24,637 bases of DNA from Promethearchaeota archaeon Loki_b32 (GTDB taxonomy: Archaea > Asgardarchaeota > Lokiarchaeia > Sigyniarchaeales > SOKP01): positions 1 to 24,637 of the forward strand of contig NJBH01000046.1 in the NCBI GenBank assembly GCA_005223125.1. Direction: 5' to 3'. The notes beneath the pieces are model-generated. The model saw nothing but the letters and a program-made list of their open reading frames with translations. It was not told where the DNA came from and made no database searches. Made by a program: the position numbers and the translations under genes. Positions 8,561 through 15,526 of this stretch are shown here, in pieces. The first letter of the stretch is position 1. Every line of letters starts with the position of its first letter.

Positions 8561-8719
8561 ATGTCCGCACCTAAATTAAGCTCAAAAGATTTAACTATAT
8601 GTACCAAGTGCGGGAATGTTATGGTAAACAGAATGATACGCACCAATAATTCTGATGAAGTGGCATTCCAAAAAGTCTTACAATGTATCGTTTGTAGATA
8701 TTGGGTTGCTCTAGATTAA
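8561..8719 (+). CDS. 52-aa zinc-ribbon microprotein (not in ORF track)
   Basis: MSAPKLSSKDLTICTKCGNVMVNRMIRTNNSDEVAFQKVLQCIVCRYWVALD* has CTKC and CIVC. It is followed by the TTTTTCAA-TATAT-TTGAAAAA hairpin/T-run. Confidence 0.7.
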   Translation: MSAPKLSSKDLTICTKCGNVMVNRMIRTNNSDEVAFQKVLQCIVCRYWVALD

Positions 8720-8984
8720 TTTTTTTCAATATATTTGAAAAATCATTAAATAATTTGAAATTCTAATTTTCTTTCAGACATCATTACCTGAATAAATCTA
8801 AATTTTCTAAGAACATAAAGAACTCTCACAAATTTAAATGTTTGTCCCCTAATAATTTTAGATTTTTACCATTCCTTCACTAAGACAGAATTTTCAACCT
8901 TTCTCCGTTATTCCGTTATATTGGAACATAAATAAAATATAATACCATGGTTTTTATATTAATAAAACCTAATATCTAGGTAAC

Positions 8985-9131
8985 GGAAGGGAATTCACAG
9001 ATCAACTCCTGCAAACATTGGATCGATTATCTCAGTTCGAGAGCGTCCCAAAATTCGCCCTCTATTAAGCTCTAACGAGTTTAATTCTCTCCTTACTTAT
9101 AAAAATTTGGCGGGAGTTTCTTTTCCCTTCC
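8985..9131 (+). ncRNA. Candidate structured non-coding RNA of unknown family (strand tentative)
   Basis: Nested stems GGAAGGGAA(8985-93)/TTCCCTTCC(9123-31) and AACTCCTGC(9004-12)/GCGGGAGTT(9110-18); internal hairpin ATTAAGCTC-TAAC-GAGTTTAAT (9064-85); TTTATAT box at 8953-59; T-rich tract right after 9131. Confidence 0.5.
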
Positions 9132-9293
9132 TTTTCTTTATAAAATACTATGTAGTAATTCCATTATTAATTTTAATGATTTTGTATTACGAGTATCAGT
9201 ATTTACTCTTCTTAGAATTATCATATTTTTATGCAAAAGTTTTCGTGATAATCTTTTTAAAATAGGTATTATCTGTTAAGAAGTGAACTGATT

Positions 9294-9396
9294 TTATTTT
9301 AAAAGTTCTCTAATACTTATTTTTAATCCATCTTCAGCAGCAACAATATTTTTTATATTTGAACTTTCTTGAAATTTTCTTGAAATTTTTTGTCGA
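9294..9396 (-). repeat. Duplicated 3' end of the MBL-hydrolase gene (att-like direct repeat, copy 1)
   Basis: 9294-9377 matches 11831-11914 at 76/84 nt by manual alignment. AATTTTTTGTCGA is also shared (9384-9396 vs 11935-11947). Confidence 0.9.
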
Positions 9397-11654: not shown

Positions 11655-11830
11655 TTTATGAATTAAATTTCTGCTCTATCAATCTCATTATAGAAATTGA
11701 CCAATTTATTTTTGGAATGGACGGAAAAATCATCTTCACTAATTTTATCAAGATTTTTAATACAAAGTTCAAATATAGAGGAATTTCTCTATTCAGTGGC
11801 CCAGAACTTCTCAAATTTAAGATTAATTGC

Positions 11831-11947
11831 TTACTTTAATAATTCTCTTATCTTAATTTTTAATCCATCTTCAGCAGCAACAATATTTTTTATATTGGAA
11901 CTTTCTTGAAATTTTTTTACTTGGCTAGGGACATAATTTTTTGTCGA
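11831..11947 (-). repeat. att-like direct repeat, copy 2 (functional 3' end of the MBL-hydrolase gene)
   Basis: Matches copy 1 at 9294-9396. Confidence 0.9.
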
Positions 11948-12637
11948 CCTAGGGCTATCCATATATGAACCAAAATGAGTAATAATAAGACTATTAAGAG
12001 GGGGGTCAATTTTGTTTAAAAATGGTATAACTTCGTCGGTGCATAGATGTCTTTTACATACTTTTGAATCAGGTCGTAAGAGATTAAGAACTAATATATT
12101 GACACCAGAAAACTCTTCAGAAAAACCATCATATACCATTGTATCACTTGTAAAAGCTAAAGAATAATCCTTAAGTTTAAATCTTATTCCAAATCCCTCG
12201 TTTTTAGGAGAATGAACAGTTTTAGTTCCAATGATTTCTACACCCTTATAATTATATGTATTTCCTGCCTTAAACCTCACAATATTTTCAAGCATATTAA
12301 TATGATAATCAAAAATATATTGAATCATACCATTTGTGGTAATTAGAGTACCTTTCTTATAGTAATTATAGTTTCTATCATGTAAAATTTCTCTTGAGCT
12401 TTCAATGATTGCACTTAAATCATTATAGTGATCAACATGAGTATGAGTTACTATAAAGAGTTCTGTTTTTAAGGGATCCTCTTGAAATTGGTTAATTCGT
12501 ACTATAGCACCAGGTCCGGGATCGATATGAGCCTGAATATCATTGAACTTATAAATAATTCCTCCTGTTGCTCTATATTGCGTTCTAATATGATGACGAC
12601 CCCCTCCAGAACCAAGAATAACTAACTCATCATTCAT
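11831..12637 (-). CDS. Metallo-beta-lactamase-fold hydrolase (archaeal PhnP-like)
   Basis: ILGSGGGR, TQYRATGG, IDPGPGA, THTHVDH (HxHxDH), FTSDT, RHL, ITHFG. Confidence 0.9.
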   Translation of the reverse strand: MNDELVILGSGGGRHHIRTQYRATGGIIYKFNDIQAHIDPGPGAIVRINQFQEDPLKTELFIVTHTHVDHYNDLSAIIESSREILHDRNYNYYKKGTLITTNGMIQYIFDYHINMLENIVRFKAGNTYNYKGVEIIGTKTVHSPKNEGFGIRFKLKDYSLAFTSDTMVYDGFSEEFSGVNILVLNLLRPDSKVCKRHLCTDEVIPFLNKIDPPLNSLIITHFGSYMDSPRSTKNYVPSQVKKFQESSNIKNIVAAEDGLKIKIRELLK

Positions 12638-13267: not shown

Positions 13268-15526
13268 TTAACTACTTTGTAGATCTCGAATTAAAATTTC
13301 ATCAATTTCTTCAAAAAGTGGTTTTAATCTTTCACTTAATATACTTTGAATTTTAAATTTAGTGTAATTAGTTTTATTATTTTCTATATAAGCATTAATT
13401 GTGTCTACGGCTATTTCTTCACTCTTTTTTCCCAATTCAGCTAATTTTTGATGAGTAGAATTCTTGCTTTCAAACTTCGTAATTGGAAATTCTAGAGGAA
13501 GCTTAAAGATATGCCTTGAACTCTTTAATATTTTTATTTGTTTTGTCATTAGATTAGAATTTAGAATTGCGGACAAGTAATAAGCTTCTTCGAGATTATC
13601 GGTATCATAGAAACACAAATCTCCAGTAACCCGAAAGTCTCCTTGTACTACAGCAGCATTTAATATAGAACCTGAATTATTATAGACAATCTTAATTTTA
13701 GAAGTTTGTCTTAAATTAATTAATTTGGACCATCGATTTAAATTTTCCATCAATGTTTCATGCTTAGTTGTTATTTTTTTATTTCTCTTATAAACATCAT
13801 TAATTTTGTCATAAAAGAGTTTGGCGTAAGCCTCTAAATTGTTATAGTTAAAGCTCAAATCAGATTTATTAAGTGGTAAAAATACATTATAGTAATTATA
13901 TACATGAAACTTAACTAATTCAGTACTTTTGATAACATTAAATATATAATCACGCTCAACAATGTCATTCTCAAATTCCTTTTTATTCCAAGGAGCTTTA
14001 GCTCTTTTAAAAATCCTCATTTCTGGATTGATCATACATAAACCATCATTAAGATTTTTTACCTTAACAAATATGAGATTTCGCGGATTTAAATCTGCTC
14101 CTTTATGAAAAAGACTTTTATAATAGCTTTCTCTAATGGGTAATAAATTATTAACCATGTCTTTTGAGATAAGTTTCCTTGTATATAACCTACCACTTTT
14201 TTTTTCAATTAAATATGGTATTAAAGGAACTACTTTATCTAACTTTAATTGTATTGGTTTAAAGTAGTCCACAACCTCCAATTCATTCTTTAATGTGAAG
14301 TGGTATGATTTAATTTCTGTAATGGAGTTTTCTAAATTTCCTCTTGACTTTTGCCCAAATAAGCAAATAAAATCAATATTAAATACATTTTCAATTTTCT
14401 TATCGAATGTCCATATTTTAATATCTGAAAATCCTTTAAAATTACGGAATCTGGAAGTATGGGATCCTGTAATAACGCCTTTAGTTATTACAAAAAATAT
14501 TTTAGCGCCTTCTTTCATAAACGATTTTTGTGACTTGATAAAGAATAATGTTGAAATCTCTAAATTTAAGAGATTTTTAGGGAGGGGTTTTATTTCTAAT
14601 TCCTCCGCTAAGTTTTTAACTTTCTCTTGATATTCAACAGATTCTATATCGCGATAAGTATACCATGGGGGATTCCCAATTACTAAATCGAATTCCTTTT
14701 TATAATTATTATTAGTTTGAAATAAAGAATCAAATACATACAAATTGAATCTAATATCAGGAATTAAATCTTTTAATAAATATAATAAATTAACATTTGA
14801 TATGTAAATAGAAATTGGATTAATGTCATAACCAAAAATTCTATTTATTGCTTCAATTTTCCTTTCTTTTGATACATTCTGAGAAAGAATATATTTAACT
14901 GTTTCAGTCAAAAAATTTCCCGAACCACAACAAGGATCAAGCACTACCTCCCCAAAGGAGTATATGTCTTCAATCATCTGTTTTGCTAAAAATAATGGTG
15001 TATAATATTCACCAGATTTATGTCTTATAAGAGGAGATATAATCTTTTGAATTAAGTAGTCAAAATAATATTCTGGTTTAATATTAAGTTTAAAAATATA
15101 GTTAGAAACATTATAAACGAGATCATAGAAAAATGTTAAACTTTCTTTTTCAGAAAGAGAAAAAAATGGATTAAAGTATCTTATCCATAAAAGATTGAGG
15201 TTGCTATAATTTGATTTTAATTTTCCTTCGATTTCTCTTATATGATTTGAAGAAAATGTGTGATTTTTAAGTGAAATTTCATTTTTTAGAATAAACTTAG
15301 AAATGAAGACATAACCAATCGAGTAAATCAAAGCATGAACAATGTATAACTGCAAATTAACTTGTTTTTTACCATAAATCTTTTTAAAATCTCTCTGCCA
15401 TTCTTTAAACTCATTTTTATTATGAAAGCCTTGTTTTCTTAAAATAATCTCTAATTTTTTTAGATTTTCGCTTATTATATTGAAATCAAAATCATAATTC
15501 TCTTTTGGGTTCAAAAGCAATGCCAA
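13268..15526 (-). CDS. N6-adenine-type DNA methyltransferase (gamma-class, type IIG/Eco57I-like M + target-recognition region)
   Basis: GEYYTP, VLDPCCGSGNF, IFGYDINP, FDLVIGNPPW; C-terminal YYLSAILNS; TTG start. Confidence 0.85.
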   Translation of the reverse strand: MALLLNPKENYDFDFNIISENLKKLEIILRKQGFHNKNEFKEWQRDFKKIYGKKQVNLQLYIVHALIYSIGYVFISKFILKNEISLKNHTFSSNHIREIEGKLKSNYSNLNLLWIRYFNPFFSLSEKESLTFFYDLVYNVSNYIFKLNIKPEYYFDYLIQKIISPLIRHKSGEYYTPLFLAKQMIEDIYSFGEVVLDPCCGSGNFLTETVKYILSQNVSKERKIEAINRIFGYDINPISIYISNVNLLYLLKDLIPDIRFNLYVFDSLFQTNNNYKKEFDLVIGNPPWYTYRDIESVEYQEKVKNLAEELEIKPLPKNLLNLEISTLFFIKSQKSFMKEGAKIFFVITKGVITGSHTSRFRNFKGFSDIKIWTFDKKIENVFNIDFICLFGQKSRGNLENSITEIKSYHFTLKNELEVVDYFKPIQLKLDKVVPLIPYLIEKKSGRLYTRKLISKDMVNNLLPIRESYYKSLFHKGADLNPRNLIFVKVKNLNDGLCMINPEMRIFKRAKAPWNKKEFENDIVERDYIFNVIKSTELVKFHVYNYYNVFLPLNKSDLSFNYNNLEAYAKLFYDKINDVYKRNKKITTKHETLMENLNRWSKLINLRQTSKIKIVYNNSGSILNAAVVQGDFRVTGDLCFYDTDNLEEAYYLSAILNSNLMTKQIKILKSSRHIFKLPLEFPITKFESKNSTHQKLAELGKKSEEIAVDTINAYIENNKTNYTKFKIQSILSERLKPLFEEIDEILIRDLQSS

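Follow-up and report, generated by a model that had tools for sequence, protein, structure and literature searches.

What is encoded at positions 8985-9131 of the stretch of DNA analysed here (24,637 nt, hereafter the window)? The preliminary description proposed an undescribed, structured Asgard RNA of about 147 nt with closed ends and its own promoter and terminator, or else a MITE-like element. Our analysis points to a real, new and family-wide Asgard small RNA on the plus strand, of which the window copy very probably needs tRNA-type splicing, and we put the probability of this reading at about 0.9. Judged by sequence comparison, the RNA is a member of an uncatalogued multi-copy small-RNA family of the Lokiarchaeia (Asgard archaea).

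The precursor folds on the plus strand with -42.6 kcal/mol (z -4.3, against z -2.2 for the minus strand) and is, as had been noted, richer in GC than its flanks (41% vs 24% and 21%). The perfect 9-bp terminal stem (8985-8993/9123-9131) and the 9-bp stem with one U-G (9004-9012/9110-9118) described earlier are both present, as is the hairpin at 9064-9085, which is conserved as P3. The gene, its stems and its loop strand are located as follows.

8985-9131, plus strand: small-RNA gene; 147-nt precursor, predicted to be 117 nt once spliced; ends inferred from the closing stem.
8985-8993, plus strand: 5' arm of closing stem P1, pairing with 9123-9131; changes on both sides in 9 of 9 pairs, 91% of cells paired.
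8999-9012, plus strand: 5' arm of stem P2, pairing with 9110-9121; changes on both sides in 13 of 13 pairs.
9064-9085, plus strand: hairpin P3; changes on both sides in 9 of 9 pairs, 96% of cells paired.
9086-9109, plus strand: unpaired loop strand, pyrimidine-rich and then U/A-rich; composition kept, sequence variable.
9110-9131, plus strand: 3' arms of P2 and P1.

The TATA-like box and the T-tract directly downstream were likewise found where they had been reported, and a palindromic site lies further upstream.

8913-8929, no strand assigned: palindromic upstream site, about YGT-N-TANTA-N-ACR, 21 nt before the TATA box; candidate activator operator.
8951-8959, plus strand: TATA box, about 31 nt upstream; across the family its position peaks at -31, counted from the first base of the stem.
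9132-9139, plus strand: U-tract, likely terminator; homologues are followed by one too.

The palindromic site is found in 86 of 152 non-redundant upstream regions with a peak near -69, and the copy at 8913-8929 is the best of its kind in the genome. An Lrp/AsnC gene with the same upstream site was considered as the regulator and rejected, the site being present in only 3 of 15 homologous loci. The statement that the stretch has no ORF is nearly true; a 52-codon frame with a TTG start begins at 9107, and nothing in the sequence suggests that it is a gene.

The checks named in the preliminary description included an Rfam scan, covariation among homologues and a count of genomic copies. No Rfam family matched the window or the intronless copies, and ARAGORN found no tRNA at 8985-9131; together with the absence of boxes this upholds the earlier view that the element is not a tRNA, 5S, SRP, RNase P or C/D guide RNA. 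The SRP and RNase P RNAs are located elsewhere in the host genome. A C/D or H/ACA RNA was rejected as CUGA is neither conserved nor present in the window copy and there is no 3' ACA. The literature searched, which covered few subscription journals, holds no description of the family.

A DNA search gave strong homologues in most genomes of the same genus. Using a covariance model made from intronless copies we detected the RNA in 74 of 81 genomes of the host's Lokiarchaeia family, in all nine sampled genera and with 1-8 copies each. Outside this family four related copies occur in CR_4, again in the closed-stem layout, and the RNA was not found in 14 genomes of the Prometheoarchaeum family and 11 other Lokiarchaeia genomes, where the model scored 34 candidates per genome. 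The count in the host genome came to five further copies, all intronless and on other contigs.

The alignment of 83 distinct intronless sequences has compensatory changes on both sides at every one of the 31 pairs in P1, P2 and P3, and 92.5% of its cells are paired, compared with 39-53% in a control with the partners slid; these counts lean towards the model because the alignment was fitted to it. The family alignment holds 175 G-U against 45 A-C cells, and the bulge-helix-bulge (BHB) geometry described below is workable on the plus strand alone, hence the strand, which the wobbles of the single copy had left ambiguous, is now settled as plus. Conservation, covariation and the position of the promoter thus bear out the proposed undescribed Asgard RNA with closed ends, promoter and terminator. 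A triplex between P1 and the loop was also considered and rejected (4.57 vs 4.35 swapped, confounded by relatedness).

The MITE alternative deserves weighing, as a non-autonomous mobile element (MITE- or SINE-like) without cellular function would account for terminal inverted repeats, for the several near-identical copies that some genomes have in scattered places, frequently at contig ends, and for the partial duplicates of the 3' end and the changes of orientation seen around the main locus. A target-site duplication is, however, lacking in 17 of 25 cases and consists of 2-4 nt of A/T in the others, the stems covary while the loop is frozen, and IMG/VR and plasmids gave chance matches only and no copy of the RNA. 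Against it stands also one locus that is syntenic across the family and has a conserved promoter. At 96 distinct loci the RNA lies beside the same MBL-fold hydrolase gene, and many of these also adjoin a 52-aa zinc-ribbon gene and an EamA gene. The two flanking genes in the window are:

8561-8719, plus strand: 52-aa CxxC..CxxC gene, the other flank of the orthologous locus.
11831-12637, minus strand: MBL-fold hydrolase gene (weak RNase Z similarity), which marks the orthologous locus.

For the main locus we regard the mobile-element reading as largely refuted, and overall as extremely improbable.

Several observations on the surroundings of the gene may be added. The 52-aa protein is conserved, adjoins the RNA gene in many genomes and has no match in Pfam or NCBIfam; no protein gene accompanies all copies of the RNA. 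Relative to the MBL-fold gene the RNA gene has one orientation at 77 loci and the other at 19, with at least 9 changes on the tree, and contigs in three sequencing runs join window positions 8726 and 9140 on opposite strands. Two loci have, 1-2 kb downstream from a full copy of the RNA gene, a duplicate of its 3' part alone (L039:5946-6056 and L040:5787-5908), with small cargo genes between; these duplicates resemble the scar of an element integrating into a tRNA gene, and no integrase was recognised in the cargo. An 88-bp direct repeat (9293-9380 and 11830-11917, 90% identical) corresponds to the 3' end of the MBL-fold gene and encloses about 2.5 kb of extra DNA with a 238-aa orphan ORF and a beta-propeller gene. 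This arrangement, immediately behind the RNA gene, has the look of an insertion with duplication of the target. Past a small GTPase gene, 13268-15526 holds a 752-aa gene resembling an adenine DNA methyltransferase. A dispersed and possibly mobile subgroup (L032, L033, L044-L051 and L054-L056) comprises intronless copies that are nearly identical and have about 100 nt of upstream DNA in common; it is found in several genomes, often at contig ends. One such copy (L259, G204 C382) sits on a short contig of a genome outside the class, by binning error or transfer.

Compared with its paralogues, the window copy has 30 extra nt, which are exactly 9024-9053.

9015-9023, plus strand: last part of exon 1, holding the 5' half of the invariant core; the BHB central helix has one strand at 9018-9021, and 9022-9024 is the 5' bulge.
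9024-9053, plus strand: BHB intron, 30 nt; predicted cuts after 9023 and 9053.
9054-9063, plus strand: first part of exon 2, holding the 3' half of the invariant core; contains the anti-SD-like CCCUC.

Excision of the 30 nt restores the core ACAUUGGAUUUCGCCCUCU, which is uninterrupted in the five intronless paralogues of the host genome and at 56 of the 96 orthologous loci. The central helix pairs 9018-9021 with 9048-9051, a 3-nt bulge comes after each of its strands, and an intron helix (9025-9027/9045-9047) and an intron hairpin (9030-9042) complete the fold. The junctions, as set by the intronless homologues, come after the second bulge base at both sites, which is likewise where they lie in the BHB of pre-tRNA (PMC4090602). 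At -41.5 kcal/mol against the MFE of -42.6 the BHB fold costs 1.1 kcal/mol, and in the precursor ensemble the central helix forms with a probability of about 0.11. Helix h' has at least 2 bp in 43 of 45 rows; the exon-side helix h is just 1 bp, which points to the relaxed HBh' form.

The fold of the preliminary description is that of the unspliced precursor, in which intron, invariant core and paralogues had escaped notice; the length of about 147 nt fits the precursor, while the functional RNA is probably about 117 nt. The hairpin TCTC-AGTTC-GAGA (9030-9042) exists as described, but inside the 30-nt insert that most homologues lack. A further hairpin proposed at 9039-9062 has an A-C mismatch, spans the insert and is not conserved, and as bases 9039-9042 are common to both these two hairpins are mutually exclusive. 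The three-hairpin multibranch domain was not confirmed.

Among the 96 orthologous loci 56 have no insert, 33 have one at the window's site (site 1) and 7 have one at a second site, 3 nt further on, with at least 13 changes of insert state on a quick tree of the neighbour gene. The 4-bp central helix is found in 49 of 50 distinct introns with constant bulge spacing: 36 of 37 distinct inserts at site 1 pair 4/4 (via CCAA, CCGA, CUGA or CCAG) and so do all 13 at site 2 (via GAUU, AAUU or GGUU). One false pattern match (L103) was left out of these counts. Shuffled inserts gave means of 2.35 of 37 and 0.29 of 8, a null that overstates the significance because the introns are related.

The host genome encodes RtcB and a two-subunit EndA, with a catalytic subunit (Tyr/His/Lys) and a structural second subunit without the His, and its tRNA genes have inserts of similar size. 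Many of these tRNA genes have inserts of about 30 nt at non-canonical positions, misread by ARAGORN (for example G000 C29:27520-27654, C48:148418-148519 and C61:107623-107736), and one such insert resembles site 1 of the small RNA in following a CUGGAU, here in the D-loop.

A 147-nt precursor would be transcribed on the plus strand from the TATA promoter with its candidate upstream operator and fold into a relaxed BHB; the alpha2beta2 endonuclease would cut after 9023 and 9053 and RtcB would join the exons into a 117-nt RNA like the intronless paralogues. We consider this step well supported, and by the sequence comparison the RNA is very probably spliced before it can act. The predicted spliced RNA has closing stems, a large pyrimidine loop and one hairpin (fold z -3.9). 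Indirectly, the introns also speak for transcription of the RNA and for its need of a continuous core. The insert could instead be kept in the RNA as a tolerated hairpin, or be cut by EndA without religation; the 1-bp exon-side helix and the low central-helix probability fit such a view, as does the fact that splicing is a prediction. Against it stand the exact BHB spacing and pairing kept at each of two sites in two RNA families and the restoration, to the nucleotide, of an otherwise unbroken core on removal, and we hold it to be very unlikely. The joined core seen in long, DNA-like contigs of four sequencing runs derives from intronless gene copies and was rejected as evidence of splicing.

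Archaeal BHB introns have been described in tRNA, rRNA, the cbf5 pre-mRNA and the 5' UTR of Haloferax HVO_1309 (PMC7714728, PMC4090602), and the endonuclease substrates of a systematic study were tRNA, rRNA, cbf5 mRNA and one 5' UTR (PMC7714728). The present introns resemble these in the 4-bp central helix, the two 3-nt bulges with the junction after the second base, the intron helix, the length of about 30 nt, the patchy gain and loss and what looks like a relaxed HBh' form suited to the alpha2beta2 enzyme. They differ in being hosted by a small non-coding RNA other than tRNA or rRNA. BHB processing also acts on the permuted SRP RNA of Thermoproteus, where it joins ends and does not remove an internal intron. 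In the literature searched, with few subscription journals covered, no BHB intron in a small regulatory RNA is described.

A second element with the same layout has six copies in the host genome and the invariant core CUGGAUUUUUGUCUUUUG. The motif of this sister family is found in 127 of 135 family genomes, with up to 14 copies. Its core aligns with the first core with differences that are mainly C/U exchanges; UGGAUUU-Y-G-Y-C-Y-U is common to both, and the sister core has neither CAU nor CCUC. In seven sister copies BHB introns occupy these same two sites; if the sister exon has CUGG in place of UUGG, the intron partner is altered to match. The strand of the sister family is weakly resolved by wobbles (10 vs 7), but its introns assign it to the pyrimidine strand. 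A minus-strand start-stop frame was rejected as probably a by-product of a palindromic hairpin. CCUCCUCCC-like tracts are found in both the CR_4 and the sister-family copies, a point in favour of the pairing model taken up below. Sister copies (L323:2960-3140, L324, L325, L326; G000 C49, C64, C26 and C44) often lie 0.1-4 kb from an RNA of the first family. A lone copy in a genome of the Prometheoarchaeum-type family (L517, G047 C1000) sits on a 1.8-kb contig and may be contamination.

The 19-nt core is near 100% conserved, a figure that is partly circular as many members were found through the core; a metagenome scan by the 3' part alone gave 74 real copies, of which 72 have the expected 5' half, intact or intron-split. 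Covariation shows an architecture in which P1 and P2 hold the two ends together while a large loop, divided by P3, displays the core and the pyrimidine tract. CAU and the 3' core are predicted to be unpaired (0.6-0.9). The complement of the core reads GAGG, a spacer and AUG, with GAGG at -14 from the AUG, and -14 is also the modal position of GAGG before starts in the host genome (40 genes). As our best guess, at slightly less than even odds for the whole chain from splicing onwards, we infer a sibling antisense RNA that masks translation starts. The RNA and its siblings would pair imperfectly in trans with purine-rich translation-initiation regions; CAU would mask the start codon and CCCUC, 9 nt apart from it in the core, the Shine-Dalgarno sequence, blocking 30S loading on many mRNAs with a dose set by copy number, as is thought for the streptococcal csRNAs and cuckoo RNAs.

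The csRNAs are siblings that share a regulator site and have loops of anti-SD and anti-AUG character (PMC3091779), and the alphaproteobacterial cuckoo RNAs have anti-SD loop motifs (PMC4615179). Multiple sibling copies with an upstream site in common fit the csRNA pattern (PMC3091779), and the likeness extends to variable stems with compensatory changes and one conserved unpaired anti-SD motif, with an anti-AUG as in csRNA. Unlike either group, our family has an archaeal TATA promoter, a long end-closing stem, a longer invariant core and predicted splicing; it shows no sequence homology or Rfam match to them. By analogy it may work like csRNAs or cuckoo RNAs, and is not a member of either.

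Several results speak against the antisense reading. We found no mRNA with a long core complement at its start, wobble-tolerant seed matches fell at initiation regions in only 2 of 75 cases, and CAU and CCUC are both missing from the sister family's core. Pairing energy showed no preference for start regions over internal AUGs: 213 of 570 shuffles did equally well, and so did 414 of 2000 in register. This test has little power, as the real 16S tail fails it too. A clear SD is found in a minority of host genes, 38% lying below -5 kcal/mol even when the start with the best SD is chosen.

The main rival to the antisense reading, somewhat less probable, lets the same spliced RNA act as a protein decoy or RNP scaffold (6S- or CsrB-like): RNA polymerase, an Sm, KH or cold-shock protein or a factor binding the 16S tail would read the loop, and extra copies would titrate it. 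A decoy role accounts for the invariance about as well as antisense pairing does, and is suggested by a core near 100% conserved for which neither the genome nor rRNA, SRP RNA or RNase P RNA offers a matching target, by closed ends plus a large loop, by the UGGAUUU-Y-G-Y-C-Y-U motif of both RNA families, and by 1-14 copies per genome. It is made doubtful by the lack of a protein gene travelling with all copies, by core differences that are mainly C/U exchanges and suit pairing with G, and by a likeness to the 16S 3' tail that is not significant (719 of 5000 shuffles).

6S RNA is a bacterial RNA polymerase decoy of about 185 nt with a closing stem, a large central bubble and an apical hairpin, sometimes in several copies. 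These traits recur in our RNA, which differs in length (about 120 nt), in an apical helix of 9 bp and in having no match to Rfam 6S; archaea are not known to have sigma-70. Y RNA has paired ends, a pyrimidine-rich loop, a U-rich tail and a bulged-C Ro60 site. Paired ends, loop, tail and size are similar here, whereas P1 lacks the bulged-C site and no TROVE gene (PF05731, Ro60/Rsr) was found in five genomes, where the control was positive, and hence the suggested Y RNA likeness fails as membership. For the major vault protein (PF01505) there was no match, and the control likewise matched nowhere. The vault and 6S comparisons of the preliminary description hold for shape and for nothing beyond it.

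Pairing with rRNA, as an assembly chaperone or hibernation RNA, seems unlikely. The core can form 12 bp, three of them G-U, with the helix-23 loop region of the same-genus 16S rRNA (-18.5 kcal/mol), and an rRNA target would account for the invariance. The best 16S and 23S duplexes are nevertheless no better than those of shuffled cores (11 of 60 and 24 of 60), the invariant G and the final C are left unexplained, and C/D and H/ACA boxes are missing. Complementarity of the core to SRP and RNase P RNA is not above shuffles either. It is somewhat less unlikely, and still rather improbable, that the two Lokiarchaeia families form a class of their own, in which a loop-displayed core has a protein or ribosome partner unlike those of known sRNAs and splicing is an on-switch. 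The split core would then be inactive in the precursor and EndA/RtcB activity would gate the regulator, loosely like HAC1/XBP1 splicing in eukaryotes.

The literature searched holds no family-wide regulatory small RNA for Lokiarchaeia. A conserved small RNA with a repeatedly intron-split invariant core would add a class of endonuclease substrate in close prokaryotic relatives of eukaryotes. Further, with two sites, two RNA families and at least 13 state changes, it offers a compact model of intron gain and loss.
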